From: an uncultured Bacteroidales bacterium
GTDB lineage: Bacteria > Bacteroidota > Bacteroidia > Bacteroidales > WCHB1-69
Direction of reading: 5' to 3'
Length of the DNA: 62,700 nt
Assembly: GCA_905233745.1 (NCBI GenBank)
Contig: CAJODA010000004.1
Span: forward strand, 1 to 62,700
The notes under the pieces were generated by a model, which was given only the letters and a program-made list of their open reading frames with translations, was not told the DNA's origin and made no database searches. The position numbers and the translations under genes were made by a program. This document shows, piece by piece, positions 31,999 through 53,655 of the stretch; within the stretch, counting starts at the first letter, position 1; every line of letters starts with the position of its first letter.

Positions 31999-31999
31999 C

Positions 32000-32974: not shown

Positions 32975-33025
32975 ATTATTGGGATTTTTAAAGATTTAAT
33001 ACAATTGTCAATCCAATATCGTTCA

Positions 33026-33811: not shown

Positions 33812-33912
33812 GAGGGGTAAACGGTAAAAGGGGTGAAGGGTGTAAAGGGGGTAAAGGGGGTGAATGGGGTGAATGGGGTGAATGAGGTAAAAGGGGTGAA
33901 TGCGGTGAAGGG
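33812..33912. repeat. Intergenic nonamer tandem repeat (GGGGTRAAN), about 11 units
   Basis: ggggtgaag ggtgtaaag ggggtaaag ggggtgaat ggggtgaat ggggtgaat gaggtaaaa ggggtgaat gcggtgaag. Confidence 0.9.
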
Positions 33913-35220: not shown

Positions 35221-35286
35221 GTTTGACTATAAACATTGACTATAAACCATGTACCTTGAACCTTGTACCCTGCACCGGTTCCTCAA

Positions 35287-36519: not shown

Positions 36520-36549
36520 ATAGATAGTCTTTAAAATAATAATTTCACT

Positions 36550-37239: not shown

Positions 37240-37281
37240 TATTTTATAAAATTTGTGTGCAAAGATACTTATTTTTGCAGT

Positions 37282-38028: not shown

Positions 38029-38098
38029 AATCCAAAATTCAAAATTCATAGTTAAACCCCTTAAGACCAAGCCCAAAAGCCCAAAAGCCCAAATCCCC
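38028..38098. repeat. Short intergenic tandem repeats
   Basis: aaatcca aaattca aaattca and aagccca aaagccca aaagccca. Confidence 0.6.
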
Positions 38099-38100
38099 TC

Positions 38101-39522
38101 ATGACCCAACCCCAATTCCACAAGAGACTCCAAACGCATTTCGGATTCGAACCGACGGATAGCCAGCGCGAAGTGATGCAGACGTTGTCATCGTTCATCT
38201 TCGAGAAGGGTGAGAACTTCCTTTTCATCCTGCAGGGGTACGCGGGCACAGGTAAGACCAGTCTGGTGAGTGCGTTGATCCGGACATTGGAGGACGTGGG
38301 GGTGAACACGGTTATTCTGGCGCCTACCGGGCGTGCCGCAAAGGTCATCTCACAATATGCAGGTCGCAAGGCATATACCATCCACAAGTGGATTTACCGG
38401 CTGGGCGTGCGCAACGGCATACGGCAGTTTTTCCGCAAGGAGAACAAGTACAGCCACACGCTTTTCATTGTGGATGAGGCCTCCATGATTTCCTCAGAAT
38501 CCGCGCCGGGTGAATTTCCGGGCATGAGCAGTCTGCTGGACGACCTGATGGAGTATGTCTTTTCGGCCCCGCACAACCGGATGCTGTTCATCGGAGACAG
38601 CGCGCAGCTGCCTCCGGTGCACGCCACCGAGAGTCCCGCACTGAGCGCCGAATACCTGCAACATGCATACTGTTTGAACATCAGGGGCAGCCGTCTAACC
38701 GATGTGGTGCGCCAGACGCTGGACTCCGGCATTCTGTACAACGCCACCCTCCTGCGCGACAAGCTGAGCCGCGATGAAATCAGCTTCCCGTTCTTCAGCA
38801 GGAAACCCTTCAACGACTTCACGCGGGTGCCCGGCGGCGAGCTCGAGGACCTGCTCAACAACTTGTACAACCAAAACGACTGTGACGAGATTGTAGCTAT
38901 CACCCGCTCCAACAAGCGTGCCTGGCTCTTCAACAACGAAATCCGAAGCCGCATCCTCTTCCGCGAGAACCGCATCACCACGGGTGATTATCTGATGGCC
39001 GTGAAAAACAACTATTTCTGGCTGGACGAAACCTCCGAAGTGGGATTCATCGCCAACGGCGACATCATGGAAGTAATGGCCATTCACAAACAACAGGAAA
39101 TTTACGGTTTCAATTTCGCTGATGTGACGGTACGGCTATGCGACTACCCGAACTATCCGGACATCGACATCAAAATCATCCTGGAGAGTCTGGAGGTGGA
39201 AGGTCCGTCGCTGACCTACGAGGACAACCAGCGTCTGTATCAGGCAATTGCAGAGGATTTTGAAGACATCGCCAACAAGCGGGCCCGATTTTTGAGAATC
39301 AAGAACAGCCCATTCCTCAATGCCGTGCAGGTGAAGTTCGCCTACTCGCTCACCTGCCACAAAACACAGGGCGGCCAGTGGAAACATGTGCTTATTGACC
39401 AAGGCTATCTGACGGAAGAGAACCTGGACAAGGAGTATCTGCGCTGGCTCTACACGGCTGTAACACGCAGCACACAGAACGTGTATCTGATTAATTTTGA
39501 GGACAAGCTATTCGGAGTGTAA
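38101..39522 (+). CDS. RecD-like superfamily-1 helicase (exonuclease V alpha-like)
   Basis: GYAGTGKT, APTGRAAK, VDEASM, GDSAQLPPV, VVRQ, TCHKTQG, YTAVTR. Confidence 0.9.
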   Translation: MTQPQFHKRLQTHFGFEPTDSQREVMQTLSSFIFEKGENFLFILQGYAGTGKTSLVSALIRTLEDVGVNTVILAPTGRAAKVISQYAGRKAYTIHKWIYRLGVRNGIRQFFRKENKYSHTLFIVDEASMISSESAPGEFPGMSSLLDDLMEYVFSAPHNRMLFIGDSAQLPPVHATESPALSAEYLQHAYCLNIRGSRLTDVVRQTLDSGILYNATLLRDKLSRDEISFPFFSRKPFNDFTRVPGGELEDLLNNLYNQNDCDEIVAITRSNKRAWLFNNEIRSRILFRENRITTGDYLMAVKNNYFWLDETSEVGFIANGDIMEVMAIHKQQEIYGFNFADVTVRLCDYPNYPDIDIKIILESLEVEGPSLTYEDNQRLYQAIAEDFEDIANKRARFLRIKNSPFLNAVQVKFAYSLTCHKTQGGQWKHVLIDQGYLTEENLDKEYLRWLYTAVTRSTQNVYLINFEDKLFGV

Positions 39523-39538: not shown

Positions 39539-40468
39539 TTATTTTTTTGTTTCTGCCGCCTTTTCCACTATTTTCGCATAAGCACAATCGCATTCCATGC
39601 TGCTTGTATCCCCATCGATGAACGTAATCTTCTTCTGAATCCTGCTTTTGTCCACACCCGAAGCGACAAAATAATCGGTTATCTTTTTCAGCCTACTTTT
39701 AATCAAGAAAGAAGCAAAGAGGTTTTTAAACCATGATTTCTTACACCAAGTTATCTCAATCAGCAAGCCATAATCCTTATTTTCTCCCAAGACTTTAATG
39801 ATATTTCCTACGTTTTCAAAACTGGGTGCTGACTTTCCAGGTTCAAAAGTAATCTTCACGCTGGTTTCAAGGTTCTGTATTGCAGATTTGGATGCCGTTC
39901 CTCCCGGCTTCTGCTGGACAGTAACCTTTCCCATGCGGGTCCCGTTGTCGCAAATAATGCCAATGCTGCAATCCCTTTTCTCTCGTGAAGGGTTGGGGGC
40001 ACAACGCACAACCAAGTAACTGCCGCCCTCTGAAACCGACAACCAGCTCGTATCCTTAACGGGGACTGATGAAAACCAGTCGCTGCAAGTAATCCTCACG
40101 TCAGAACAAACGCCACCCTCAGCATCAAAAATCAATTCTGAGCCAATGATAAAATCAGACTCCTGTTGACGATGCACCACATAATGCGAATTACCTTTGG
40201 AGCTGTTCGTGTTGCTAGCAGATGATGGGGTATTGAAGGACTTCAGCATATTAGCCGCCGCTTTGCGACAATTCTCCGGATTACTCGGTGTATTGATAAT
40301 GTTCGTCAACACTTTGCGAGCTGCTTCAAGTTGCTTCACATCCTTGGTTTTTCTGTACTTGTCATACATTTTACCTGCCGACTGGATGCGGTCGGCACAA
40401 TCTTGGGCATATACTGTGCAAAGAGGCATACATAACGCCAATAGTAAAAAAACAACAATTCTCTTCAT
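39539..40468 (-). CDS. Secreted protein: helical N-domain + BACON-like domain + degenerate OmpA-C-like domain
   Basis: Signal peptide; FDAEGG...SWLSVS...CAPNPSREKR...VTVQQ (BACON pattern); ITFEPGKS...RLKKITDYFVASGVDKSRI. Confidence 0.7.
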   Translation of the reverse strand: MKRIVVFLLLALCMPLCTVYAQDCADRIQSAGKMYDKYRKTKDVKQLEAARKVLTNIINTPSNPENCRKAAANMLKSFNTPSSASNTNSSKGNSHYVVHRQQESDFIIGSELIFDAEGGVCSDVRITCSDWFSSVPVKDTSWLSVSEGGSYLVVRCAPNPSREKRDCSIGIICDNGTRMGKVTVQQKPGGTASKSAIQNLETSVKITFEPGKSAPSFENVGNIIKVLGENKDYGLLIEITWCKKSWFKNLFASFLIKSRLKKITDYFVASGVDKSRIQKKITFIDGDTSSMECDCAYAKIVEKAAETKK

Positions 40469-40482
40469 ATTCGTATAGTTCT

Positions 40483-41871
40483 TTAATCTTCGGGAATATA
40501 AATGTACTGTATGGAATCGATAAGGGTGTTCACCTCACTATCGTCGTTGATGAGTTTTGCTAATTTCAAATAGTTCAGCACATTCTCTCGCAAACCGTTT
40601 TCCAAAAATGCCCCGGGCAAGTTCTCCTTGGCCTCGGCAAGGCAATAGTCATGTATATTTCCACGTATAATATTTATGCTGTCCGTGTAAACTTCCTGAA
40701 ATTCAGTATTCTGACAGGCTTGGGCACTATCGAACAAGACAAGCGCGTGTTTGAACCTTTCGAGTTGTCCTTGCGTATTGTCCATACCTTGCTGATAGGT
40801 TTGCACGCCACGTTGGTAAAATCCCATGGCCTCATCGTATGCCTGGTGGGATTTTTTGCCCCGTACACTGAACAATACAACAAGCAGGACAACGACAGCG
40901 ACGCACGCACCTATGATTATTCCCTTAACCGGCAGCTTCTTGGACTTCGGGGATTGTGCATGTGACGACGAATTGGCCGGATACTGACCACTTATATGAA
41001 TGGACGAGCTATTGTACGGGCCATTTGATGTGTGTATGGAGCTTGGTGTGTACGAAATCTGAGCCAGGTGTTCAGCGGCAAACCGCTCCAGATCAGTGGC
41101 AAAAGGCCGGTTGCCCGGCACAGGAGCCAGGCACTGCATGATAACCTCTTTCAAATCATCTGAGTAGTTGGCTGGCAGCGGCGGGACTTCCTCTCCTGCA
41201 AGTTGGGCTTCGCCGCCCTTGCCCCCGAACGGCAACCGTCCGGTGAGCATCTCGTAAAGCGATGCGCCCAACGCCCAAATGTCACTGGCCACCAAGGGCA
41301 TCTGATTCCGCTGGAACTTCTCGGGCGGCATATACGGTCTAGTACCCTGAACCGTGGATTTACCCTCAGCCGATTCGCCTAACATGTGCTTCACATTAGA
41401 GCTGATACCGAAATCGGTGATGATGTAGCTGTTGCCGTCTAACAGCACATTGGCGGGCTTGATGTCCTGGTGAATAATCGGCGGCTGGTGCTCATGCATG
41501 CAGGCCAAACCGGAGGAGACGTCATGCAGAAACTGCCAAGCTTTGCGCTCGCTGCAATTTCCAAGCAAGTCCTCCGCCGATCCGGAATTATAGTACGGCA
41601 TCACCAAATACGGGTGACCCACACAAACACCGAAATACGTGTATTTTAACAGATTGGGGTGATTCAAATTATAGACTAAGGCAAACTCCTGACGGAACAT
41701 CTCTATACCCGACTCGTCCAATTGCGCCGTCGGCAAAAACACCTTTAACACCAGCGTCAGCTGCGCGGAAGTGTCCTCTACAAGCCAAACCTCGGAGAAC
41801 CCTCCTTCTCCAAGTTTCTTCAAAAGTTTATATCGACTGTCAAAAAGGTAGCCTTGTTGTAATCTTGACAT
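40483..41871 (-). CDS. Membrane Ser/Thr kinase (non-RD) with periplasmic helical domain
   Basis: GEGGFSEV, VLK, HQDIKPAN, DFG, GTRPYMPPE, DIWALG; TM GIIIGACVAVVVLLVVLF. Confidence 0.93.
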   Translation of the reverse strand: MSRLQQGYLFDSRYKLLKKLGEGGFSEVWLVEDTSAQLTLVLKVFLPTAQLDESGIEMFRQEFALVYNLNHPNLLKYTYFGVCVGHPYLVMPYYNSGSAEDLLGNCSERKAWQFLHDVSSGLACMHEHQPPIIHQDIKPANVLLDGNSYIITDFGISSNVKHMLGESAEGKSTVQGTRPYMPPEKFQRNQMPLVASDIWALGASLYEMLTGRLPFGGKGGEAQLAGEEVPPLPANYSDDLKEVIMQCLAPVPGNRPFATDLERFAAEHLAQISYTPSSIHTSNGPYNSSSIHISGQYPANSSSHAQSPKSKKLPVKGIIIGACVAVVVLLVVLFSVRGKKSHQAYDEAMGFYQRGVQTYQQGMDNTQGQLERFKHALVLFDSAQACQNTEFQEVYTDSINIIRGNIHDYCLAEAKENLPGAFLENGLRENVLNYLKLAKLINDDSEVNTLIDSIQYIYIPED

Positions 41872-41931
41872 ATTAGTTGAAAATTAGATTCTGACTTTAA
41901 CAAAGTTGGTCTTCCTCACCAGAGCCAACGC

Positions 41932-43341
41932 TTAATTACCGTTTGTTGAAGTATATTTTTTACTATGCTGGTATCCGAATTCCGGATTCAAATCTGAACT
42001 GCCGTCCGGATCATCACCATCTTGTGTTGGTTGGATGGTATGGCCTTTTGTATTGATATTCTTTTTTTTGAGGCCTTGATTTTTATCCTTTGCAGGCGGG
42101 GTCCCATTCTCAGCAATAGGCTGGTTCTCCTCTTTCTTTTCATGCTTGGTCCCATTCTCCGCAACAGGCTGGTTCTCCTCCACATTTTCATGCGTGGTCA
42201 CCTCCTCAACAACAGGCTTGTTCTCCTCACCTTTATTACCATTATCGTCCTTGACATAGAAAATGGAAAAAATGGCAACGAAAATTGCGATGCCTACAAC
42301 ACAGGCGGCAGCAATAAACCAAGGCATCGGATTCTTCTTCTTTTTCAAAGAGGAGTGTCCATAGTATATATCATCATCCGAATACTGATGGCTATTTGAC
42401 GAAGAATAAACCCCCGACATATAATCTTTTGAGTAACTGCCAGAAGAGGTGTAGTCATTAGAAAAGCCTCTTCCGGATGATGTGTTGTTCGTGTCCGGAC
42501 CATTGAAAGGATTTAAATCCCAGTCCGTAGTCGCCTTTTGGGAGAGATGCCGTTCGGCGTACTGTTTCAGTTCTTTGGCAGTAGGGCGTTCATTAGGATT
42601 TTGGGAGAGGCATTGCCGGATGATTCCTTTCAAATCATCGGAGAAAGAGCTCGGCAATATTGGGATGCCCACGCCATCCAACTGGCTTTGGCCCCCTTTC
42701 CCTCCGAAAGGCAACTGGCCTGTAAGCATTTCGTACAGAGACGCTCCCAATGACCAGATGTCGTTTTCCACCGACACAAGAGGTTCTTCCTGGAATTTTT
42801 CAGGTGGCATATAGGCACGAGTCCCCTGTACAAAACGCTTGTTTTTGAAGAGGCTGTACACGCTTGCGCTAATACCGAAGTCGGTGATAATGAAGTTACC
42901 CTCGTCATCCACCAACACATTAGCGGGTTTAATATCCTGGTGAATAATGGCAGGGCGATGTTTGTGCAGACAAGTGAGTCCCGCTGCCACATCGCGAAGA
43001 TACTGCCAGGCTGTCGGTTCGTCGCATCGTCCGATTAAATTCTCCGCTGAACCAGCGCTATAATAGGGCATCACCAAAAAAGGATAGCCTACACAAATAT
43101 CGTAATAACTGTATTTCAGCAGGTTTGTATGGTTGAGGTCAAACACCAGCGAGAACTCTTTGCGAAAAAGTTCCTTTGCCGTATCGTCCAACGTCTCCGA
43201 AGGAAGGAAAATCTTAAGTGCCATGAGATGCTTGGCCGTGGTATCCTCCACCAGCCACACCTCGGCATATCCGCCTTCGCCAATCTTTTTTTTCAGAAGA
43301 TAGCGTTCGTGAAACAGGAATCCTTCTTGTAAGTGTGCCAT
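41932..43341 (-). CDS. Membrane Ser/Thr kinase (non-RD) with low-complexity periplasmic tail
   Basis: GEGGYAEV, ALK, HQDIKPAN, DFG, GTRAYMPPE; TM WFIAAACVVGIAIFVAIFSIFY. Confidence 0.93.
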   Translation of the reverse strand: MAHLQEGFLFHERYLLKKKIGEGGYAEVWLVEDTTAKHLMALKIFLPSETLDDTAKELFRKEFSLVFDLNHTNLLKYSYYDICVGYPFLVMPYYSAGSAENLIGRCDEPTAWQYLRDVAAGLTCLHKHRPAIIHQDIKPANVLVDDEGNFIITDFGISASVYSLFKNKRFVQGTRAYMPPEKFQEEPLVSVENDIWSLGASLYEMLTGQLPFGGKGGQSQLDGVGIPILPSSFSDDLKGIIRQCLSQNPNERPTAKELKQYAERHLSQKATTDWDLNPFNGPDTNNTSSGRGFSNDYTSSGSYSKDYMSGVYSSSNSHQYSDDDIYYGHSSLKKKKNPMPWFIAAACVVGIAIFVAIFSIFYVKDDNGNKGEENKPVVEEVTTHENVEENQPVAENGTKHEKKEENQPIAENGTPPAKDKNQGLKKKNINTKGHTIQPTQDGDDPDGSSDLNPEFGYQHSKKYTSTNGN

Positions 43342-43377
43342 AATGAAAAACAGTTCGTGTTGTGGTTTAGCTATCTT

Positions 43378-44832
43378 TTATTGATTTTGGTTCTTTACAT
43401 CAGAACTATTATTCGTCTGCAGCTCGTTATTGTCCAGGTTCTTACCCCCGGTACGGAGCAAATCGTTGCCTCCTGTATTTGATGGGGTGCCCGGAGCATT
43501 CGTGGATTTGCCTGACCTGAGACTCGGCACATCACCATTCGCAGTTGTTCCTGCGGCAGACGAAGCGTCAGCTCTGCCTGCATTCCCCGATTGTGAGTCC
43601 TTGTCTCTCGTTACGGGCTTGGAAGCCGCAGACGGCACGGTCGTGACCGTCTTGTTCTGATGCTGATATTCGACTTCTGTCAGACTGACATCTTCATTGT
43701 CAGAAGTGCTGTTGGAGGATTCTGCCTGTGTGTCCACATGGGTGTTCCCCGGGGTTTGGGAAACTGCATCTCCATTTTCCACTTTCTTGGGTGAATCAAA
43801 GTATCTGAAGCAGGCATAGCCACCTACAAACACTACCACCACAGCCAGAAGTGCGATGAGCGTGTCTTTCAAGCGATTATTTTGGCGGCGGGACGGGTCG
43901 CTTTTCTCGCTTGACACAGCTGCAACATTATTCTTTTGAGTTATGCTCAAGGGATTGCTCTGCTTCACCGGCCGTTCGGGACCTGAAGCCACCTGGCAAA
44001 GCAGCGTGGTCACATTGTCGTGCCAGTGAGCGGCGGCGGCATCTGTCCATAACTGCTCAATGGCCTCTGGCAGATGGTTTGCGTCCGGAATAGTTTCGAT
44101 GACATTCTGGATTTCATCAGTGCGCAGCACCCCGCATAAGCCATCGCTGCAAAGCAGGAAAATGTCGTCTTTGTAAATGTTAATCGGACCCTCCACATCA
44201 GGATTGGCTTTCTCGGAAGGGTTACCGAGACTCCGAGTGATTATATTGTTGTTGGGATGCTCGAAAGCCTCTTCTTCGCTGAGTTGAAGCACCTCCATCA
44301 CATAGGAGTGGTCACGGGACAACATTTTAAGAAAATGGTCAGGTGAGTAGTAATAAATCCGGCTGTCACCACACCATGCATAGTAGGCGGTATTGTTCTC
44401 CAGCAGCCAAAGCAGAGCCACTGTGGTACCCATCCCCTCCTTCTCGCTATCTCTGGCAGCCTCCTTCTTAATGGCAATGTCTGCGGCGACAATAGCCTTA
44501 CGAATAAACTTCTTGATGGCGGCATCAGAAGACATATCCAGATGCTTCATGCCCTCTTCGCTGAATTGATCCTGAAGCGTGGTCACGGCAATCTGGGAGG
44601 CAACCTCCCCGGCGTTCATTCCGCCCATACCGTCAGCCACCACTAACAGACATCCCTTCCCCTGCAGGGGAATCATTTTGGAGAAGTCCCTTACGGTCAC
44701 ATCCCCAAAATGATTCACGGAGGGGTTGGCAACACCCACTTCAGACACCACGAGACAATTGTCCTCATTTGCGCCGTCGCGGGCAGCCCTGTCGCATTGT
44801 ACAGCAATACTCAGTATTGTTTCCTCACTCAT
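43378..44832 (-). CDS. Membrane-anchored PP2C/PPM Ser/Thr phosphatase
   Basis: NED, VADGMGG, GMGTT, GDSR, LCSDGL, DNVT; TM LIALLAVVVVFVGGYACF. Confidence 0.93.
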   Translation of the reverse strand: MSEETILSIAVQCDRAARDGANEDNCLVVSEVGVANPSVNHFGDVTVRDFSKMIPLQGKGCLLVVADGMGGMNAGEVASQIAVTTLQDQFSEEGMKHLDMSSDAAIKKFIRKAIVAADIAIKKEAARDSEKEGMGTTVALLWLLENNTAYYAWCGDSRIYYYSPDHFLKMLSRDHSYVMEVLQLSEEEAFEHPNNNIITRSLGNPSEKANPDVEGPINIYKDDIFLLCSDGLCGVLRTDEIQNVIETIPDANHLPEAIEQLWTDAAAAHWHDNVTTLLCQVASGPERPVKQSNPLSITQKNNVAAVSSEKSDPSRRQNNRLKDTLIALLAVVVVFVGGYACFRYFDSPKKVENGDAVSQTPGNTHVDTQAESSNSTSDNEDVSLTEVEYQHQNKTVTTVPSAASKPVTRDKDSQSGNAGRADASSAAGTTANGDVPSLRSGKSTNAPGTPSNTGGNDLLRTGGKNLDNNELQTNNSSDVKNQNQ

Positions 44833-44844
44833 TCTTCAGTGTTA

Positions 44845-45822
44845 CTATTTGTTTTTTCCTTTCTTTTTGCCTTTATTGTTATCCTTTTCAGGAATTATGG
44901 AATCGTCATCCTGACCCTGATTTTTCTTGTCAGAAGCAGACTTTCCTGACGCTGTTGGCTGTGACAGCATCTTCACCAACTCCCACTTGCGGGAGCCGTA
45001 AGGATCCATACGCGCCATGCCCATCAGGTTGAAGCGGATACAGCCGGGCTCATCCACATTCATGTTCAGGAAAGCACCACCGATAACGCTGGCAGGATTA
45101 GCGGGCTGGCGCAAATTGAAGATGGTGTTCTCATTGAACGTGATTGTTGTGGGAATAATCGTACAATGCGTCTCTCCCATATCATCCAAAGAGAACCAAA
45201 CCATATAGCCAGACTTCATGCCATCACCTGTCTCAACACCCAGACCAAGATTATGGAAAGTGGTGTCCAAAACGTTGTAAAAACCTGAAGCGAGCATCTC
45301 GCTAACGGTCTTGTTCATGTCAAACGGACGAAATTCTTTGTCTTTCAACATTTTGTATTGGACATTATCCACCGAAACCATATCTTCGCCGTATTTGTTG
45401 GCATCGAATTTCGGATCCGACTTCCAAGGTTTCAGGAATCGGTTGTCCACTCCGTAGCCATAAGCCAGGAGTGGAACAACACTATATACGGTACCGAAAA
45501 AGTCATTGCCAGAGACATTGCTGCCACTCTCATTGTCACGCACGTTATAGTCCGATTTCACCACAAGGAAAGCGTTTTCCACGGCGCGTTCAATAATGGC
45601 ATTCGCATCAGAAGAGACTCTGGAGGAACTCGGTGCCTGAGGATTGAGGGAAGGTATCTCCTTGTTCTCAGGTGTCACGGCAGACTCTTCGCCGGCGTTT
45701 GTCTTTTCCGCCTGCTCTTTATTGGTTCCTTTCTTGTTCCCATGCAAACTGGGAATATTATTCTGCGCATTGCCAAGCACAACAGCGGCAATAAGCAGGA
45801 ATATTAAGCTAATTTTTTTCAT
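44845..45822 (-). CDS. Secreted protein, probable catalytically dead trypsin-fold paralogue
   Basis: Signal peptide; VDNRFLKPW and SVIGGAFL...FNLMGM align by eye to TARHVVEPW and GNSGGPVF...YLVGL of the upstream gene. Confidence 0.6.
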   Translation of the reverse strand: MKKISLIFLLIAAVVLGNAQNNIPSLHGNKKGTNKEQAEKTNAGEESAVTPENKEIPSLNPQAPSSSRVSSDANAIIERAVENAFLVVKSDYNVRDNESGSNVSGNDFFGTVYSVVPLLAYGYGVDNRFLKPWKSDPKFDANKYGEDMVSVDNVQYKMLKDKEFRPFDMNKTVSEMLASGFYNVLDTTFHNLGLGVETGDGMKSGYMVWFSLDDMGETHCTIIPTTITFNENTIFNLRQPANPASVIGGAFLNMNVDEPGCIRFNLMGMARMDPYGSRKWELVKMLSQPTASGKSASDKKNQGQDDDSIIPEKDNNKGKKKGKNK

Positions 45823-45836
45823 AATCGTTTGAAATT

Positions 45837-47354
45837 TTAGTGGGTGATAGCGGAAATCGGAACGATACTGCCGGAATTATTACCATGACGGGTGGAAACG
45901 AGACCCACCAGATAGTACTTGCCATTTTGCTTGTAGAACACAGGGCCACCGCTATTGCCGTTTTCATAGTTGGCACCGGTCACTGGAATCACACCGTGAA
46001 GCAGACCCGTGTTGGAGGTGGTGGCATATGTGTATTGCGGACGGATGTCGTTCTTGTCGCCGCCTCTTCCGTATGGGAATCCTAACACTTCCAGACGGGC
46101 ACCGGCAGGAAGGTTCTTCGACAACTGGGCATCGGCCACAATGTTGCTGTGTACATTAACCTTGCGATAAGCATAGTCGCTGCCATTGGCAAGATAAATG
46201 GAAAGGCCGTCGCCAAGTTCAACCTTCTTGTCATTCTTACGGCTCACATTGAAGTCGGTGTAGTGGAAGACGCGTTGGTCACCAGTTTTGCTTTCAGCCA
46301 CGATGGTGGCATCGATGATGGCGCCCAGCTGTGACAAGACGTTGGCCACGGTGAAGGTGTTTCCTTCGTCAATGTTGGCCCAGTAAGCCCAAGGTTCCAC
46401 CACGTGACGGGCGGTGATGAAATAGCCGTCGCTGGTGATAAAACCAGTGGCTAACGGGGTCTCGTCACCCACAAAATAGTACTCCCACGGATCGTCGCCG
46501 ATGATATCGTAGGCATCAGAGCTCTTGGGTGCAGAGATGGTGAACTTTGTCATCTTCACGAAATACACATAGGGTTCGAAAGATGTAAGATTGCCAGACA
46601 ATGGAACATCCGCCGGTCTGCTGGGTGTTGCCGGAACAATATTACTGCTTGAAGTACGACTACCACTTTTTCTAAAGCCATCGATAATCTTGCGAAGGCC
46701 AGAAATTTCTTCTTGTGCAGCCTTTGTCTGTTCAACTGCATTCTTTGATTGTTCAATTGCGGCAGCAGCTTCCCCTTTGGCTAATCTCGTCTCCTTGTTG
46801 GCCATTAGCAAGCCTGCGACGAGTCCTGCAATGGCAAGACAGAAGATGATGCATATGGTAACCAAGGCGGTCTTGTAGGGTCTCAGAGCCTGCTGGCGGA
46901 AGAGATTGAGACGGGCGGTCATGCCGATGGACTTCACAAAAGACTGTTCGCCTTGCGGGACGATGAAGCCGAGGCGCGGGCCGTTGTAGGAGAGTTGGAT
47001 TTCATCTCCGTTTTGCAGCATCTGCTCACCCATCACACGCTGACCGTTCACGAACGTGTCATTAGTGCTGCTGCGATGGATAAGTTTCCATTGGTCGCCT
47101 TCGCGGACAATGACGGCGTGCTCACGGCTCACCGTGCCGAACTGCTCGTCAATGAGCACCTGGCACTTCTTGTCGCGCCCGATGAACACCTCATCAATAA
47201 TGAGCTTCTGCTGCTCACCACGGCGGTGTGTTGCCGAGTCATCCTTGTGTTCAATGATAAAATAGCGTCTGCCGTCTCCGCCGAATACGGAGCGCATGCC
47301 GGAATTGATGGTTCCGGAAACCGTTCTTTTGAATTGAGTAGTTTGATTTGCCAT
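45837..47354 (-). CDS. FHA-TM-coiled coil-trypsin-like serine protease
   Basis: FHA IGR...VSREHA...NDTFVNG; TM; TARH, DYA, GNSGGP catalytic triad. Confidence 0.92.
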   Translation of the reverse strand: MANQTTQFKRTVSGTINSGMRSVFGGDGRRYFIIEHKDDSATHRRGEQQKLIIDEVFIGRDKKCQVLIDEQFGTVSREHAVIVREGDQWKLIHRSSTNDTFVNGQRVMGEQMLQNGDEIQLSYNGPRLGFIVPQGEQSFVKSIGMTARLNLFRQQALRPYKTALVTICIIFCLAIAGLVAGLLMANKETRLAKGEAAAAIEQSKNAVEQTKAAQEEISGLRKIIDGFRKSGSRTSSSNIVPATPSRPADVPLSGNLTSFEPYVYFVKMTKFTISAPKSSDAYDIIGDDPWEYYFVGDETPLATGFITSDGYFITARHVVEPWAYWANIDEGNTFTVANVLSQLGAIIDATIVAESKTGDQRVFHYTDFNVSRKNDKKVELGDGLSIYLANGSDYAYRKVNVHSNIVADAQLSKNLPAGARLEVLGFPYGRGGDKNDIRPQYTYATTSNTGLLHGVIPVTGANYENGNSGGPVFYKQNGKYYLVGLVSTRHGNNSGSIVPISAITH

Positions 47355-47403
47355 AATGGAAAAGTTAAGTTGTTAATATTGAGAAATGAATTGTTCATTT
47401 TTA

Positions 47404-48693
47404 TCAAATGCCCTCCACACGTAGTTTCACCTCACCGATAGAGATAATGTCGCCAGCTTTCAGCTCCACACCTTCAAGTCCATGAAGTTCCCTCGAATTG
47501 ACATACGTGCCGTTGAGCGAGTTCTCCCACTTTCCGTCATAGAACTGGCCATCGCGCAAGTACCAGCTATTCTGCACAGGGTTGAACTCCAGCGTGAAGT
47601 GCCTGCGAGAAATGTAGCTTGTATTAAAGTCCTTTATACTAATGTTGTTGCTGATATATTTGCTGTAGCGGCCGCCTGTTACCAAATAAATGTCATCTTG
47701 CAAGAAATCGTTGAGATTATAACGCTTGCCATGTTCCTCGCCCTGCATCACTTTCAGCACCAAACCCTTGCTGATGTTGGTACTGAAATCCAGTACCGGT
47801 GTCATCACACGCGGTTGCTCCTGTTGGTTAGGAATATGCGCCAGCACTTCATCCACACTTTGATAGCGTTTCTCATAATTGGGTTCAAGACACCCGTTCA
47901 GAACAGTCTCCCAATGGCTCAGATGTGGTTTCATGCGCAACTTGTCACGATTCCAGCGCCCGCTCACCGCCTTGTCGATATATGGCTCCAAGTCCGCCTC
48001 ACTCTCCAACCTTCCATAAGGCAATTCGTGGAAAAGTATTTCATACAGAACCACGCCAAATGAAAAGATGTCAGTAGTGGGAAGCACCGTGGCTTTTGCC
48101 TTTTTAGGACGTGTCTGCTCGGGTGCCATGTAGGCAAACGTGCCGAAGATATCCACTTTATTGAAAAGTTTTTTCCAAAACGGGATATCGGCGATGGCAC
48201 CGGTAGTGCCGAAATCAGACAGGGCCACCTTGCCGTCGCTCTTCACCAGAATATTTTCAGGCTTGAGATCGCGGTGGACCTTGCCACTGCGGTGCAAAGC
48301 CTGCAAACCGTATAAGATTTGGCAGGCAATACGTTCATAATTAGGTGAGACATTCTCCACAAGGTTATATAGGTTACCTTTTTGACAGAATTCCATCACA
48401 ATATATGGATTACCCATCACAATATCGTACTCGATAGAATGGACCAAATAGGGGCTGTCAATGCGGCCAGTCTCAAATTCCATCTTGAAACGCTGGACCA
48501 ATTCGGCCCTTTCCTCGCCGGTGCGTTTCCATAATGGCAAAATCTTCAGCGCGTATGGCTGATTACGGGCATCCAACACTTTGAACACCATCCCAAAGCT
48601 TCCCTCTCCCAACGTCTTCTCCACGCGGTAGCGTCCGTTGACGTATTCACCAGCCTTGAAATCGCATTTTTCAGCAAAGTAGTTTTCAGCCAT
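47404..48693 (-). CDS. Soluble RD-type Ser/Thr kinase with C-terminal FHA domain
   Basis: GEGSFG, ALK, HRDLKPEN, DFG, GTFAYMAPE; FHA GGR...ISRRH...SLNGTYVN. Confidence 0.93.
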   Translation of the reverse strand: MAENYFAEKCDFKAGEYVNGRYRVEKTLGEGSFGMVFKVLDARNQPYALKILPLWKRTGEERAELVQRFKMEFETGRIDSPYLVHSIEYDIVMGNPYIVMEFCQKGNLYNLVENVSPNYERIACQILYGLQALHRSGKVHRDLKPENILVKSDGKVALSDFGTTGAIADIPFWKKLFNKVDIFGTFAYMAPEQTRPKKAKATVLPTTDIFSFGVVLYEILFHELPYGRLESEADLEPYIDKAVSGRWNRDKLRMKPHLSHWETVLNGCLEPNYEKRYQSVDEVLAHIPNQQEQPRVMTPVLDFSTNISKGLVLKVMQGEEHGKRYNLNDFLQDDIYLVTGGRYSKYISNNISIKDFNTSYISRRHFTLEFNPVQNSWYLRDGQFYDGKWENSLNGTYVNSRELHGLEGVELKAGDIISIGEVKLRVEGI

Positions 48694-48704
48694 ACCAAAA
48701 AAAA

Positions 48705-49556
48705 TTATTTAGTTGAAAATTCGAAATCACGATCACCCATAGACACAATATCACCGTCATGAAGCTCTGTCCGGCGGGTCACCCGGATATAGGTGCTCTT
48801 GAAGGCGCTGCGGTCCTCAATGTACCATTTGCCGTCCTCAAAAGTGAGCAATGCCTGCTGCTGCGAGGTGATAGTGAAATTGTCAGGCTCAGTGTTCTGG
48901 CGGTTCAGGACAACTTCAGCAGAGGAATACTCCTGTTTCACCATTCTCGCTGCGGGCTCATTTTCGTGCGGTACAGGCTGAAGGGAGCAATGTGGAGGCA
49001 GTTCAGGCTCGGTCATCTTTGCCCTTGGATTCTGCATCTGGTGGATATTGACCGTTTTCTTGTTAACAGCTTCTTCTTGATTCGTGGCGGGCACAAAACG
49101 CTCTGTCTTCTTGGCGGCAGAGATATTCTGATCGGGTGCAACATAACGTTCCGTCTTTTTGGGAACTGTCGCATCTCTGTCAGGTGCCACGTATGGTTGG
49201 GTGACCTTAGGGCCAACCGGTTGTTGCTGGAGATTCGGATTGCTGATAACAACAGTCTTCTTTCCCCCTCCATCTTGCATTTGAGGAGGTGTACTGTTCC
49301 CTATCGGACGATGGCATTTCGGACATACCTGCATTCCCGGAAGAATGGGATAGCCGCAGTCGTGCACAGTCACACCGCCACCCTTGGGTTCCTCCGGACG
49401 GGTTTCCATTCGCATTGTTTTTTTGTCGTCATCCACGACAGGAGCTGCAGATGATACCGCAGCAGCCGCTTTACGGTTCTCTTTTAAAGGTGAGCCGCAC
49501 CGGCTACAAAATGTAGCATCATCGGCATTGTTCAGTCCACAAAATTTACATATCAT
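48705..49556 (-). CDS. Zinc-ribbon + Thr-motif linker + FHA protein
   Basis: CKFC/CSRC and HDC/CPKC Zn pairs; FHA LNR...ITSQQQA...STYI...GDIVSMG. Confidence 0.88.
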   Translation of the reverse strand: MICKFCGLNNADDATFCSRCGSPLKENRKAAAAVSSAAPVVDDDKKTMRMETRPEEPKGGGVTVHDCGYPILPGMQVCPKCHRPIGNSTPPQMQDGGGKKTVVISNPNLQQQPVGPKVTQPYVAPDRDATVPKKTERYVAPDQNISAAKKTERFVPATNQEEAVNKKTVNIHQMQNPRAKMTEPELPPHCSLQPVPHENEPAARMVKQEYSSAEVVLNRQNTEPDNFTITSQQQALLTFEDGKWYIEDRSAFKSTYIRVTRRTELHDGDIVSMGDRDFEFSTK

Positions 49557-49562
49557 AATCGT

Positions 49563-50138
49563 TTATTTTACTATCAAGTTATTAGTCAAATACCTATTCG
49601 TACCCATCCGCTCATTTGCAGTGACAACTTCCATCTGACTGTTGTCACCGTACAAGTAACAGGTACGCCATGTTTTTTCCGCCTCAACAGCGTAATAGAA
49701 AGGCAGGAACAACGTTCTCCCATAATCACGATAATACTGTTCATCGCCGAACCAGTAGACGGTAATGGGTTTCAAAGGCTGGAATTTTTGATTCTCAGAA
49801 GTGTACAGAGGTTGAAAAGTGCGACATAGCATATCCTTCTCGGAAGCTGCGAGCACCGAACAACGGTCAATGTAATCAAGTAGTCCCTTAGCCTCATCCC
49901 ACGCCGACCTGTCGGTGATTTTTACCGCATCGAACACCTTGCCATCCTTGTTCACACCACCGCGGATATAAATCACAAAATCGCTTACCTTATTATTATT
50001 AAGGGCATCGTCTATCACATTTGCTATATAGGTGCCATCTGTGTGGTCGCCAAGATTGATACAGAAGAAATAGAAGTCTTGCGCCCGCGACACAAAACCC
50101 GCCAACAATACCACTATAAATATCATTGCCTTTCGCAT
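49563..50138 (-). CDS. Secreted hypothetical alpha/beta protein
   Basis: MRKAMIFIVVLLAGFVSRA-Q signal peptide; tight operon spacing. Confidence 0.75.
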   Translation of the reverse strand: MRKAMIFIVVLLAGFVSRAQDFYFFCINLGDHTDGTYIANVIDDALNNNKVSDFVIYIRGGVNKDGKVFDAVKITDRSAWDEAKGLLDYIDRCSVLAASEKDMLCRTFQPLYTSENQKFQPLKPITVYWFGDEQYYRDYGRTLFLPFYYAVEAEKTWRTCYLYGDNSQMEVVTANERMGTNRYLTNNLIVK

Positions 50139-50151
50139 ATTCCTTCTGTAT

Positions 50152-51717
50152 TTAAAAATTGTACTTTACACCGAGTTGAAAATCCAGAAACTGGGTTGGC
50201 TGAGTCCAAAGGTTCCGGCAAACGGAGTTGAAATCAGCCGAATTAGCCGAAAGACGGAAACCACCATGTTGTTCAGCCGGTTTTGTGAGAATACGATAAC
50301 GGTACCCGGCTGAAAAATCCAGTGACCATCGTTTATCGGAAGTGATGAAATATTGGGCACCTATTCTTGCAAGAGCATCAACATGCCAACGATGAGTCCT
50401 CATTACATTTTCAGAAAGGTTAACCACATCAAACGTGCCGAAATCATAATATCCGTTCTGATCAATCAGCACGTTGTAATATTCTTCGCCATACAGACCT
50501 GCATAATGCCCGTTGAACGATGCTTTTGCAGGAGAGATAAAAGCCATTGCACCACGAAGGCCCACAGCCGCGAAAACCGACAGACTGGGAATCACATAAT
50601 AGTCATAACGGACAATGGCAGGAATTGCAAACGAAATACTGCGGCCTGCCTCATCATATCCCAACAATTGCGTCTTTCGCGTATATCTGGCGCCATCCGT
50701 GTCGATTGTATCATATTGGTCCACATAGGTATCCGCTGAAAAATGTTGAACGCCGATATCAAGTACCAGACCTGTCTCAAAGGAAACCCTATGCCGGCCT
50801 TTCGCAAAAATCTGGCGCAAGTAGGTTGCACCGACTCGGAAAGTATGGCTTCTGTATGCAATATTTTCGAAAGTGTAGTCAGCGTCCGACGGAACCTCGA
50901 TATTTCCCATGCTTAAAGGCATGACATATCCGAATTCCAAACCAACGGCGTTTTTCACTGTGTTGACGGAAATCGTATGATAGCGAAGCGTGTCGTTATG
51001 AGGGGTGAACTCATATTGGAATGTGGCACAGTTCTGTTTGGAAAGTTGTTTGTACATCTCTGCCGACAACGGCTGGACACGACTGTCCAAATAGGTTTCA
51101 CCACCTCCTACTTCCTTCACTTTCAAAGTTTTAGGAATATATAGTGTATGGGTATTATTCTCATAGTTGGCCAAAATATGCGGTTTCATCCGGTTGTCGG
51201 CACGGTTACACTCTATACGGACAATCTTCGCCGCCTTACGAACAAAACTGTAATCTATGACTAATACCAGACGGCTGACCACAGGGGTGGTATCTGTAAT
51301 AGTATTATATTCTTTGGTCAGCACCGCAGTATAGATTCCCCCAATGTCCGAAAGACTCTGACGGTCAATTTGCACGTCCTTGATGTCGAACTGTCGGAAT
51401 GTTCCCTGCTGCTGCTCATAGAAAGCACAATAGTTGGACAGTGTGACCGAATCTTTTCGGTTCGAATTGTTATACCAATCAATGTGGTCCATATAGACCG
51501 TAGTGTTCTGACTCTCGAAAAGGTTGCGAAAAGCGCCTATTTTCTGAGCATAACGTTCCGTAAGGTTCGCATTATCCACATAGGCATCTACCAATTCAAA
51601 CACCTTTTGATTGGCATACATCACGTCACGAACCGTTTGAGCCATACAGCCGGATGTAGCAAATAACCCACACACCAAAATAGATAATATGACATTTTTC
51701 ATATTCATTGCTGGCAT
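50152..51717 (-). CDS. Outer-membrane protein: N-terminal soluble domain + C-terminal beta-barrel
   Basis: Signal peptide; amphipathic strands; FQLGVKYNF C-terminal beta-signal. Confidence 0.8.
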   Translation of the reverse strand: MPAMNMKNVILSILVCGLFATSGCMAQTVRDVMYANQKVFELVDAYVDNANLTERYAQKIGAFRNLFESQNTTVYMDHIDWYNNSNRKDSVTLSNYCAFYEQQQGTFRQFDIKDVQIDRQSLSDIGGIYTAVLTKEYNTITDTTPVVSRLVLVIDYSFVRKAAKIVRIECNRADNRMKPHILANYENNTHTLYIPKTLKVKEVGGGETYLDSRVQPLSAEMYKQLSKQNCATFQYEFTPHNDTLRYHTISVNTVKNAVGLEFGYVMPLSMGNIEVPSDADYTFENIAYRSHTFRVGATYLRQIFAKGRHRVSFETGLVLDIGVQHFSADTYVDQYDTIDTDGARYTRKTQLLGYDEAGRSISFAIPAIVRYDYYVIPSLSVFAAVGLRGAMAFISPAKASFNGHYAGLYGEEYYNVLIDQNGYYDFGTFDVVNLSENVMRTHRWHVDALARIGAQYFITSDKRWSLDFSAGYRYRILTKPAEQHGGFRLSANSADFNSVCRNLWTQPTQFLDFQLGVKYNF

Positions 51718-51782
51718 AATATTTTAGTGGTGTGTCGTTTGTTACCGACCTGTATAGTCAAAAGGTAGATTAGTACTTGTGT

Positions 51783-52373
51783 TTATACCAAATTAGAGAA
51801 GCCCATGAAGGCCATGGCCAGAATGCCGGCGGTGATGAGGGCGATTGGCACACCCTTCATGCCTTTGGGAATGTCAACCAGCTCCATCTGTTCGCGGAGA
51901 CCGGCGAAAATCACAATGGCCAACGTGAAACCGATGGCGATGGCCACTGAATAGAAAGTGCTGTCGAGAATAGAGAACCCGTGGGCAGCGATCAACGGTT
52001 GCTCCGTCACCTTGATGGCAATACCCAACACAGCACAGTTCGTGGTAATGAGGGGCAAATAGACACCAAGAGCCCTATAGAGTGAGGGGCTCATCTTCTT
52101 CAGCATGATTTCCACCATCTGGACCAAAGAGGCGATCACCAAGATAAACACGATGGTCTGCAGGAAGGTGATGTTGAGCGGTACCAGAACATACTTCTGC
52201 AATGAAGAGGTCACCAAAGTGGCCAATGCCATGACAAAGGTGACAGCAGCACCCATGCCAAGAGCGGTGTTCACCTTACTGGAGACGCCCAAAAAGGGAC
52301 ATATACCGAGGAACTGCACCAAAATGATATTGTTGACCAATACAGCTCCGATTATCATCAATATGTATTCCAT
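51783..52373 (-). CDS. rnfA: Rnf/Rsx electron transport complex subunit A
   Basis: QFLGICPFLGVS, LPLITTNCAVLG. Confidence 0.95.
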   Translation of the reverse strand: MEYILMIIGAVLVNNIILVQFLGICPFLGVSSKVNTALGMGAAVTFVMALATLVTSSLQKYVLVPLNITFLQTIVFILVIASLVQMVEIMLKKMSPSLYRALGVYLPLITTNCAVLGIAIKVTEQPLIAAHGFSILDSTFYSVAIAIGFTLAIVIFAGLREQMELVDIPKGMKGVPIALITAGILAMAFMGFSNLV

Positions 52374-52401
52374 AATTTCAGTTTTTTACAGATTGGTTTT
52401 T

Positions 52402-52429
52402 GTTGAGACGCACGGCCGCGCGTCTTTAC
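52402..52429. repeat. Degenerate REP-like palindrome between rnfE and rnfA
   Basis: GTTGAGACGCACGGCCGCGCGTCTTTAC, same 28-nt layout as 23961-23988. Confidence 0.65.
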
Positions 52430-52433
52430 CGTA

Positions 52434-53057
52434 TTATTTTGCGGCGCACATTTTGTCCTTGCGTTTATCCTCCACACGGTTGATGATATGGCGCATCAGG
52501 GCCATGATGAAGCCGAGCACGAGGAATGCACCGGGCGCGAGGACGAAAATCAGGATATTGTACTGTGACGGGATAAACTGCCAGCCCATGAAGGAGCCTG
52601 CACCGAGAATTTCGCGCACAGCGGCCACCAAAATCAAGGAGATGGTGAAACCGATACCCATTCCAAGACCATCGAGGATAGAGTCAAACACGCTGTTCTT
52701 GTTGGCGAAGGCCTCGGCACGTCCGAGCACGATACAGTTGACCACAATCAGCGGGATGAAGACGCCAAGGCTCTCGGAGAGCGCGGGCAGAAAACCCTTG
52801 ATGATCAAATCAACCATACTCACGAAGGTGGCGATAATAACGATATAGCACGGAATACGCACCTTATCGGGAATCACATTCTTCAGCAGGGAGATGATAA
52901 TATTGGACATAAGGAGCACGAAGGTCGTGGCGGCACCCATACCGATGGCGTTGTTCACGGAGGTGGTGACAGCCAGCGTGGGGCACATGCCGAGCACCAG
53001 GATAAGGCTCGGGTTCTCCTTGAAAAAACCTTTGGTTAAAATTTTCACTTTACTCAT
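52434..53057 (-). CDS. rnfE: Rnf/Rsx subunit E
   Basis: LGMCPTLAVT, PLIVVNCIVLGRAEAFA. Confidence 0.95.
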   Translation of the reverse strand: MSKVKILTKGFFKENPSLILVLGMCPTLAVTTSVNNAIGMGAATTFVLLMSNIIISLLKNVIPDKVRIPCYIVIIATFVSMVDLIIKGFLPALSESLGVFIPLIVVNCIVLGRAEAFANKNSVFDSILDGLGMGIGFTISLILVAAVREILGAGSFMGWQFIPSQYNILIFVLAPGAFLVLGFIMALMRHIINRVEDKRKDKMCAAK

Positions 53058-53637
53058 GATAATCCTCCTTTACTTTCATAAAAACATTATAAGCCCGTTG
53101 CACGGCATCGCAGTAAGCGCGGGAAGAGATGGTGGCTGCTGTGATGGCATCCACATCGCCGCCGTCTTTAGTCACCTGCAGCTTGTATTCTGCCGGATCG
53201 TTGTTGTTGAACTGTTTGGCGAAATCGCTCTTGTTCTTGTTGATCTTGTCACCGAGGCCAGGGGTTTCGGAAGCCTTAATAACTTCCGTATTCAGGATAA
53301 CGCCCTCGTTGTCAAAGCCCACCATCAGATCGAAGCGACCGGAGAAGGCCTTCATGGTGAAGGTTTCCACACCGGCGCCAAAGAGTTTGCCGTTCTTGTC
53401 GACAGCCTTGTGGACGAGAATGTCATCGCCTTCGAAGTTAACCACGGTATCCACGATTGTGCCGTCGAATCCGGGCAGCACATCACTGAGCGCTTTCTCT
53501 TTCTTCTGTTTCTGTGACAGTTCAATAGGTCCTTTGGTCAGTGCATACACGCCAGTCAGAGCCAGGCCGGCCACCAAGGCGATGGAAGTCAGCACGACCA
53601 CCAATATAATCAATGAAGGTTCTTTTTTCTGTGCCAT
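53050..53637 (-). CDS. rnfG: Rnf/Rsx subunit G
   Basis: ETPGLG, DAITAATISS FMN-binding motif. Confidence 0.93.
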   Translation of the reverse strand: MAQKKEPSLIILVVVLTSIALVAGLALTGVYALTKGPIELSQKQKKEKALSDVLPGFDGTIVDTVVNFEGDDILVHKAVDKNGKLFGAGVETFTMKAFSGRFDLMVGFDNEGVILNTEVIKASETPGLGDKINKNKSDFAKQFNNNDPAEYKLQVTKDGGDVDAITAATISSRAYCDAVQRAYNVFMKVKEDYHE

Positions 53638-53655
53638 AGTTTTCGGTTTTAAGGA

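Follow-up and report, generated by a model that had tools for sequence, protein, structure and literature searches.

Which process would place a phosphothreonine (pThr) reader on one side of the inner membrane and a trypsin-like protease on the other, within one protein, and surround its gene with kinases and a phosphatase? The question is raised by ten co-oriented minus-strand open reading frames (ORFs) at positions 39539-51717 of a DNA stretch from an uncultured Bacteroidales bacterium. This stretch, the window, is the whole of a 62,700-bp contig (C4) in a genome of 2.39 Mb (G000; 130 contigs, rated 100% complete). We numbered the ORFs g1 to g10 in transcription order (Table 1). An initial annotation, made from the sequence alone, had described ten co-oriented genes with gaps of about 6-60 nt, and the exact coordinates bear this out, the gaps from g1 to g10 being 13, 6, 11, 49, 14, 12, 36, 60 and 14 nt. 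The locus is a real, well-conserved and uncharacterised module in which Hanks-kinase/PP2C/FHA signalling is combined with a new output. We propose, with a probability of about one half, that host-associated Bacteroidales use it as a self-contained accessory relay in which phospho-threonine signalling controls a periplasmic serine protease of DegS-like type. In this proposal the direction of the signal, how the protease is activated, what it cleaves and what the module does for the cell are all inferred.

We know of no bacterial description of FHA-controlled proteolysis across a membrane. If the FHA domain gates the periplasmic protease, the module would represent a new route for information across the bacterial membrane, and it would provide a handle on how commensals sense envelope events. 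Ser/Thr phospho-signalling is almost unexplored in the Bacteroidales, which are among the dominant bacteria of gut and rumen. The module is compact, brings its own writers, readers and eraser, and has its output enzyme across the membrane from the phosphorylation chemistry. By record title its carriers include Palleniella intestinalis strain PINT (locus L072) and bins labelled Segatella copri, Leyella stercorea and Bacteroides uniformis, which should make the module testable.

The FHA-protease g5 and the genes conserved with it

The signature gene of the module is g5. In Pfam its product matches FHA with 61.7 bits and Trypsin_2 with 35.4 bits, and the sequence reads as having a transmembrane (TM) segment at about residues 157-190, followed by a variable charged linker at about 190-235. 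In an alignment of 82 relatives, the pThr-contact residues G59, R60, S76, H79, N98 and N103 are kept in all 82, and the GR, SxxH and NG contact motifs are all present, as in a canonical FHA reader. The catalytic triad is kept as well (H317 in 81, D393 in 82 and S468 in 81 of these relatives). The protein ends about 20 residues beyond the catalytic Ser region and has no PDZ domain at E<=0.01 in Pfam. The PDB entries closest to g5 in sequence are FHA domains of the GarA/OdhI type and, at E~2e-5, proteases of the HtrA family. Directly N-terminal to the FHA domain lies a conserved S/T-rich leader, whose hydroxyl residues at positions 11, 15 and 22 are kept in 98%, 99% and 94% of the same relatives. 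Two further hydroxyl residues in the juxtamembrane region, at positions 142 (98%) and 146 (100%), are similarly kept, and the juxtamembrane segment ..LFRQQALRPYK.. is almost invariant.

Because their chemistry needs ATP, the kinase, PP2C and FHA domains of the module are predicted to be cytoplasmic. The membrane proteins g5, g7, g8 and g9 have one TM segment each, and therefore, by established knowledge of such proteins, the g5 protease domain is expected on the far side of the inner membrane, as are the ectodomains of the other three. On this logic of domains and single TM segments, the unit would span from the cytoplasm to the outside of the inner membrane, as had been proposed from the first reading of the sequence.

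The initial annotation had also treated the ten genes as one block that should recur in other genomes. In five loci cut out after a search with g5 in 40 relatives, located in the same genus and in other families of the order, the order Zn-FHA, kinase-FHA, FHA-TM-trypsin, PP2C-TM and TM kinase is identical, and in L011-L013 g5 is followed by a g6-like gene. A pattern scan over 185,579 species, each represented by a single genome, gave 426 candidate stretches, 317 of them with a g5 relative; counts out of 80 loci refer to the best 80 of these 317. Co-conservation was counted in the 61 loci where the sequence extends for at least 2.5 kb on the upstream side of g5 and at least 4 kb on the downstream side. 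Within a closely spaced, co-oriented run, the Zn-FHA gene lies upstream of g5 in 56 and the kinase-FHA gene in 58 of the 61, while the PP2C gene lies downstream in the same orientation in 60 and a TM kinase gene in 55. All four partners surround g5 in 50 loci from many Bacteroidales families, and the median co-oriented run has 10 genes and 12.9 kb. The block is thus real, although not at its proposed extent of ten genes: the conserved unit is a core of five to six genes, comprising g3, g4, g5, with or without g6, g7 and at least one TM kinase, and g1, g2 and g10 are clade-level accessories. The g6 family is the commonest periplasmic neighbour of g5 (47/80 loci), and a short FHA-TM protein is encoded in 31/80. 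These two are largely alternative to each other, with g6 only in 40 loci, the short FHA-TM protein only in 24, both in 7 and neither in 9.

Pfam matches and TM segments confirmed the initial domain calls for g3 (Zn-ribbon-FHA), g4 (kinase-FHA), g5 (FHA-TM-trypsin), g7 (PP2C with TM) and g8 and g9 (TM kinases). The soluble kinase g4 scores 136 bits for Pkinase and 48.8 bits for FHA, and its FHA domain shows the GR, SRRH and NGT motifs. The catalytic motif HRD is found in 73 of 73 g4-like soluble kinases. The TM kinases g8 and g9 (Pkinase 154.9 and 145 bits) are both non-RD (HQD), and g8 has the DFG motif. This is the usual state of the TM kinases in the 80 loci (n=108), with HQD in 91, HRD in 9, HHD in 6 and no recognisable motif in 2. 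The RD type of g4 versus the non-RD type of the TM kinases suggests two signalling tiers. Kinase ectodomains and accessory genes are diverse in size and type (5-966 residues) and include FGE-sulfatase domains and RHS repeats. In five loci (L077, L081, L087, L064 and L025), TM kinases of 1,114-1,276 residues (typically about 1,215) with RHS repeats in the ectodomain were observed, while accessory genes of other loci carry FGE-sulfatase or Lcl_C domains.

The phosphatase g7 matches PP2C in Pfam with 57 bits. The third FHA protein, g3, matches Zn_Ribbon_1 (42.9 bits), DZR (33.2 bits) and FHA (23.6 bits), and we propose that it is a scaffold or adaptor. Over 71 sequences its FHA domain keeps the Arg and Ser (LNR...ITS..QA), has a conserved Gln at the His position and has no NG motif. 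A Thr near residue 47 is conserved in at least 90% of the family. The linker at about residues 45-170 carries five [KR][KR]T motifs, with a sixth inside the FHA domain. The seven loci that group with the window on the g5 tree (L016-L022) have 5-10 such motifs per g3 protein, which in L022 recur regularly every 14 residues; among the remaining 63 members of the family most have zero and none exceeds two. Judged by their sequence, these linker repeats may be multi-site phospho-acceptors.

Within the genome, the module accounts for all three Pfam FHA matches, the sole PP2C_2 match and three of the four Pkinase matches over the cut-off. This concentration in one locus suggests that readers, writers and eraser are dedicated to each other. 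A second, weaker g5-like gene was observed on two other contigs, its FHA-like N-terminus at C47:1-525 (-) and its Trypsin_2 part at C68:9906-10745 (-), where it is followed by a gene for a 399-residue protein with a kinase C-lobe only and by a TPR protein gene. An assembly gap probably divides this gene, which may belong to a degenerate paralogous module.

Distribution and the possibility of a defence role

The nearest public relatives of the locus come from uncultured rumen and gut Bacteroidales. The gene is rare: g5 was found in 6 of 400 other genomes sampled evenly from the order (profile, E<=1e-30) and, of 400 other genomes drawn from the phylum, in none (profile, E<=1e-20). Among 24 other genomes of the same genus there were two full-length matches (70% and 40% identity) and one match split across two contigs (57/44% identity). 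In metagenomes, at least 1,673 g5-like protein clusters were found at E<=1e-5 among 8,000 candidates scored, named only 'FHA protein'. On the g5 tree, the window groups with L016-L022 in a clade of its own on a long branch (SH-aLRT 100%). Host family labels follow this tree no better than shuffled labels for Bacteroidaceae (8 changes over 9 rows) and Prevotellaceae (7 over 8); the Paludibacteraceae alone cluster (3 changes over 12 rows). This incongruence suggests transfer among Bacteroidales, with the qualification that labels of metagenome-assembled genomes (MAGs) are unreliable and that paralogues exist; one MAG carries two loci (L064 and L073). Five loci come from bins with labels of other phyla (L040, L049, L060, L063 and L091; bins labelled Firmicutes CAG:95, Azospirillum CAG:239, Acutalibacteraceae and Treponema), and their g5 nests among, or is nearly identical to, Bacteroidales g5. 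Mis-binning or mislabelling is the more likely explanation for them, rather than spread across phyla.

The accessory genes in the runs are predicted to encode extracytoplasmic binding or envelope proteins. We compared 109 non-core cluster representatives with Pfam, which matched 82 families; the common ones are BACON (10), further Pkinase (10), TPR (4), Lcl_C (4), FGE-sulfatase (3), OMP_b-brl_2 (3), CarbopepD_reg_2 (3), Sel1 (2), Big_2 (2) and MotA_ExbB (2). None of the 25 commonest families is a nuclease family, and the only NTPase family among them is ABC_tran with two members.

A patchy distribution of this kind raises the possibility of anti-phage or inter-bacterial defence, in which the kinases would sense an infection or an assault on the envelope, and proteolysis would provide an abortive or receptor-shedding response. 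We regard this explanation as possible but rather unlikely. The rarity of the module, with few carriers of widely differing identities in the same genus, would fit it, as would a g5 tree that is independent of host family, the MAG with two loci, and the highly variable accessory genes and kinase ectodomains. Kinase-based phage defence with a phosphatase is reported for KKP of Pf prophages (PMC11341870). Like KKP, PD-T4-6, MAD6 of MADS and PglW of BREX, the module places Hanks-type kinases in an accessory, patchy locus. Unlike these kinase-based systems, it has FHA readers and a periplasmic protease and is found without their partner genes; no methyltransferase, PglX/Z or helicase partners are present at the locus. 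In PADLOC the kinase domains matched PD-T4-6 and mad6, and the protease matched RT-Protease_XI, which would again favour defence. However, the kinase matches to PD-T4-6, mad6, PglW and MkoA are generic kinase-domain matches, and the NCBIfam scores are far under the cut-offs (117-132 bits versus 460 for MAD6 and 34-39 versus 990 for BREX PglW).

The wider gene content also argues against a defence function. Besides nucleases, neither NADase, pore-former nor STAND/AAA families are among the 25 commonest of the 82 accessory families. The vWA protein of the TerY-P triad is found neither in the ten proteins nor among those 25 families. No copy of the module was found in 50,697 phage records or 72,556 plasmid records. 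In the flanks, 150 ORFs (from 179) match 145 mostly housekeeping-type families, and two of the 150 have an integrase domain, two are RhuM and three AAA_14, in a scan that had no matched control. The idea of a conflict circuit, put forward in the initial annotation, is possible but so far unsupported by direct evidence: patchiness and tree incongruence agree with it, but neither a known effector nor a neighbouring defence gene was seen, and no phage or plasmid copy was found.

Known phosphorylation pathways and the proposed relay

Two well-known systems combine the same classes of domains. In Pseudomonas, the threonine-phosphorylation pathway of the type VI secretion system (T6SS) consists of PpkA, PppA, Fha1 and TagQ/R/S/T. 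Like this pathway, the module is a trans-envelope switch whose TM Hanks kinase, PP2C eraser and FHA reader are encoded together with accessories of the outer membrane and periplasm. Unlike it, the module has three readers and three kinases, and one reader is fused via a TM segment to a periplasmic protease. As had been noted at the outset, no T6SS, Ter or MoxR gene is present at the locus by Pfam, and the genome has no VipB/TssC (PF05943; 0 matches). The g5 protein reaches 33.8 bits for the TagH/Fha1-type model VI_FHA (TIGR03354; cut-off 120.25), which g3 and g4 do not match.

The similarity to the T6SS pathway is one reason to consider that the module might be a switch for a separate envelope machine, namely a T6SS, the type IX secretion system (T9SS) or a gliding apparatus (as with GltG/GltJ and AglRQS of Myxococcus), or an extracytoplasmic function (ECF) sigma factor pathway with g5 as a DegS-like site-1 protease. 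Several neighbouring genes in related loci point in this direction. A pair of genes for a coiled-coil protein of about 300 residues and a MotA/ExbB-like protein of about 245 residues lies between g4 and g5 in 8-9 of 80 loci (L023, L024, L031, L033, L044-L047 and L093), a hint that the proton gradient powers certain variants. Upstream of g1, an ECF-type sigma factor gene and a gene for a CHU_C (T9SS) signal protein of about 270 residues are present in four close relatives (L017:2592-4036, L018:3726-4985, L020:3822-5040 and L021:3863-5081); a DUF4837 gene precedes the pair in all four, and the window has rnfA at this position. Moreover, g5 is TM-anchored and HtrA-like, as is DegS. Against such a switch, these ECF and MotA neighbours are restricted to small subsets of loci, MotA/ExbB genes are not found in the window, and no sigma or anti-sigma gene lies in or beside its locus. 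In addition to the low VI_FHA score and the missing TssC/VipB, the GltG equivalog (NF033760; FHA-TM-TonB_C-like) gave 16.5 bits versus a cut-off of 650, and the periplasmic domain of g5 is a protease instead. We therefore consider this explanation quite improbable.

The second system is the actinobacterial cluster fhaA-fhaB-pstP-rodA-pbpA-pknA-pknB, in which pThr residues in the kinase juxtamembrane regions are the expected docking sites. As in this Fha/PstP/Pkn cluster, where FhaB is also named FipA, a single operon of the module joins FHA proteins of the soluble and the membrane type to a PP2C-TM protein and two TM kinases. Unlike the cluster, it is rare and patchy instead of universal, and its TM kinases are non-RD. 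By analogy, the module could be a housekeeping regulator of envelope growth or division, which we hold to be very unlikely. The parts are indeed similar (at least two FHA proteins, one of them membrane-anchored, the PP2C-TM protein and two TM Hanks kinases), and the best NCBIfam models for the g5 FHA domain and for g7 are FhaB_Rv0019c and Stp1/IreP PP2C (Stp1_PP2C_phos). However, all of these scores are below the cut-offs, with 45 bits versus 125 for FhaB_Rv0019c, 174 versus 230 for Stp1 and 137-164 versus 450 for the kinases against PknB_PASTA (NF033483), of which only the kinase domain is covered. Pfam found no PASTA, RodA/FtsW or PBP domain in the ten proteins. Furthermore, a housekeeping gene would hardly be missing from 394 of 400 genomes of the order, or lack a full-length match in about 21 of the 24 other genomes of the genus.

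The protease itself resembles DegS/HtrA (S1C) in its intact His/Asp/Ser triad, its S1 fold, its single N-terminal membrane anchor and its HtrA matches in the PDB. Unlike DegS/HtrA, g5 has no PDZ domain, its regulatory FHA domain is on the cytoplasmic side, and no anti-sigma substrate is encoded nearby. A literature search over the main text of papers found no FHA-TM-trypsin protein or matching gene set; supplementary tables of comparative-genomics papers could list such an architecture. Where PMC7159879, PMC8195603 and PMC1262709 speak of FHA, of PP2C or of fusions between kinase and FHA, other settings and architectures are concerned. NCBIfam, PADLOC and this search thus gave no match to a characterised system, as the initial annotation had supposed. 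Judged by its predicted domains, the module functionally resembles the T6SS pathway and the actinobacterial cluster and is a member of neither, all curated models scoring far below their cut-offs.

The relay that we propose runs as follows. The single-pass non-RD kinases g8 and g9 would respond to a cue on the periplasmic side, perhaps via g1, g2 and g10, and would phosphorylate Thr residues both in their own chains and in the Zn-ribbon scaffold g3. The RD kinase g4 would then dock on pThr via its FHA domain and be activated. Such logic is known from Chk2/Rad53, FHA kinases that are recruited and activated via pThr, and in GarA, which with OdhI represents a simple FHA switch, the domain binds its own phosphorylated N-terminal region. 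Like Chk2/Rad53, g4 carries an RD kinase and an FHA domain in one chain; unlike them, its FHA domain is C-terminal and the setting is the bacterial envelope. The cytoplasmic FHA domain of g5 would bind pThr on the scaffold or on the kinases, or alternatively on its own leader, which, like that of GarA, lies directly N-terminal to the FHA domain and is a putative phosphorylation target. Binding would shift the oligomeric state or orientation of g5, switch the periplasmic HtrA-like domain on or off, and lead to cleavage of an envelope target. Regulation by oligomer state is known for HtrA-family protease domains. The g6 protein would be the likeliest partner, regulator (inhibitor) or substrate of g5, and the membrane PP2C g7 would reset the system.

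Several observations weigh against this relay. The g6 gene is absent from 33 of 80 loci and is therefore not a universal substrate. The divergence of the g3 FHA domain (His to Gln, without NG) makes its pThr binding questionable. As sensors, the g7 and g8 ectodomains are poor candidates, being short and disordered. The RNA evidence described below consists of assembled contigs, for which DNA carry-over is possible, and the rnfA-g1 junction is the sole one that is bridged. Finally, the direction could be the reverse, with a cytoplasmic cue sensed by g4, or with the protease processing the kinase ectodomains.

A more specific version of the phospho-threonine relay, which we think unlikely, would be a receptor-kinase-type surveillance system. 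Its trigger would be an attack on the envelope, for example by adsorbing phages, toxins that act on contact or factors from the host, and the sensors would be the non-RD TM kinases with their fast-changing ectodomains and swappable surface-binding partners (BACON, TPR/Sel1 and outer-membrane barrel). The signal would be relayed via the Chk2-like kinase-FHA protein and a multi-pThr scaffold, and the pThr reader would switch on the protease across the inner membrane.

Secreted proteins, surroundings and RNA evidence of the locus

The features of the locus are listed in Table 1. The hydrophobic N-terminal leaders of g1, g2, g6 and g10 all end in A|Q by eye. In Bacteroidetes, Gln follows the signal peptidase I cleavage site (the 'Q-rule'), and the putative leader ends fit this rule.

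Table 1. Coordinates and predicted products of the ten genes and of the spacer upstream of g1
Feature	Position in window	Strand	Length	Description
Spacer rnfA-g1	51718..51782	-	65 nt	No recognisable promoter or terminator; crossed by RNA-library contig
g1	50152..51717	-	521 aa	Signal leader, N-terminal domain without known family, C-terminal half like an outer-membrane beta-barrel
g2	49563..50138	-	191 aa	Secreted; without known family
g3	48705..49556	-	283 aa	Cytoplasmic; two zinc ribbons, disordered linker, divergent C-terminal FHA
g4	47404..48693	-	429 aa	Soluble RD-type Hanks kinase (HRD, DFG) and canonical C-terminal FHA
g5	45837..47354	-	505 aa	Leader, FHA, juxtamembrane motif, one TM, linker, S1 protease
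g6	44845..45822	-	325 aa	Secreted; undescribed family; invariant PW motif, Lys-rich tail
g7	43378..44832	-	484 aa	Cytoplasmic PP2C, TM ~319-346, disordered extracytoplasmic tail
g8	41932..43341	-	469 aa	HQD Hanks kinase, S/T/Y-rich juxtamembrane region, TM, ~100-aa disordered ectodomain
g9	40483..41871	-	462 aa	HQD Hanks kinase paralogous to g8, TM, ~120-aa ectodomain, helical-looking by eye
g10	39539..40468	-	309 aa	Secreted; helical-looking ~80-aa N-terminal module, BACON-like domain, unassigned C-terminal part

Of the ten initial domain calls, eight hold, and the two without adequate profile support both concern secreted proteins: the pseudo-trypsin assignment of g6 and the OmpA-like part of g10. 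The call of g1 as an outer-membrane beta-barrel stands, as residues 227-521 or so, the C-terminal half, resemble OMP_b-brl_2 barrels in an ESM Atlas model (TM-score 0.74-0.78, normalised by the target). Its C-terminus is an aromatic residue (...KYNF), and it has no match in Pfam or NCBIfam. The g1 orthologues are confined to 7 of 80 loci (L016-L022), in each of which the g2 orthologue follows directly (7/80). The leader of g2 ends ...SRA|QD, and the protein has no match in Pfam, NCBIfam or PADLOC. The start of g1 is overlapped by a gene of 389-414 codons in L016 and L017, by a gene for a 752-residue Ig_7 protein in L019 and by one for a 782-residue protein in L022.

For g6, nothing was found in Pfam, NCBIfam or PADLOC, a profile search of the PDB gave 0 matches at E<=10, and the ESM Atlas had neither a model nor a match. 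At E<=1e-3 its own profile matches 728 representative proteins; those among the 150 best that are listed have 248-368 residues. The pseudo-trypsin assignment was not confirmed by comparison with the g5 protease domain in hhalign, where the best result was P=0.0011 with a probability of 20% over 25 columns. Shallow and deep profiles alike gave an alignment confined to one stretch of 25-28 columns around the strand of the catalytic His, and in global mode there was no alignment. An extra stand-alone trypsin-like gene (312-326 residues) was observed between g5 and g6 in two loci of the window's clade (L019:8203-9141 and L022:11535-12515), with a Trypsin_2 score of 38.6 bits in L022.

The BACON match of g10 (24.9 bits) is 0.1 bit short of the Pfam cut-off of 25; its orthologue in L019 (61% identical) is over the cut-off with 29.4 bits, which supports the BACON half of the original BACON/OmpA-like call. 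The OmpA half was not confirmed, as no OmpA match was found even at E<=10. The N-terminal 90 residues of g10 have 68% identity to a paralogue of 626 residues, and g10 is one among several interchangeable accessory surface-binding proteins.

Upstream of g1, on the same strand, lie rnfD/G/E/A. On the other side, a convergent gene for a RecD-like helicase (AAA_30 and UvrD_C_2) stops 16 nt from the end of g10. Presence or absence of the module between rnfA and the RecD-like gene had been suggested as a check, and we rejected a clean insertion at this site. The rnfA gene is present in 28 of 30 other genomes of the same genus, and none of these 28 has g1 or a RecD-like gene within 1.5 kb. In four relatives with 9-15 kb of DNA downstream of rnfA there are four different gene sets, none in common with 28000-39500 of the window. 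The DNA 3' of rnfA differs in all 28 same-genus loci and in these four longer stretches, and there is no clean empty site. A position after rnfA recurs in 3 of 80 loci (L023, L034 and L043). On the opposite strand, antisense ORFs of 206-247 residues at 52105-53749 (+) overlap rnfA/E/G; these are most likely not genes, their tblastn matches mirroring the conserved rnf genes.

Pieces of g1, g3, g4, g5, g6, g7 and g9 are found in contigs of two bovine-gut metatranscriptome libraries from one study (X19 and X20), at 93-100% identity, 93% being the threshold for placing; parts of the locus have no coverage in either library. Co-transcription is unsupported so far, as the evidence comprises fragments within genes and one contig across the rnfA-g1 junction. 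This contig, from X20 (51668-51914), spans the rnfA stop, the spacer and the start of g1; it would fit read-through from the rnf operon or DNA carry-over. Scans for sigma-70 sites (21 versus 17.8 expected) and terminators (17 versus 14.4 expected) were at chance level. The Bacteroides-type -7 promoter motif is TAnnTTTG; the single copy lies within g10, and the sequence upstream of g1 has none. In the DNA run X2, a low-depth skip of 4,083 nt was observed at the locus.

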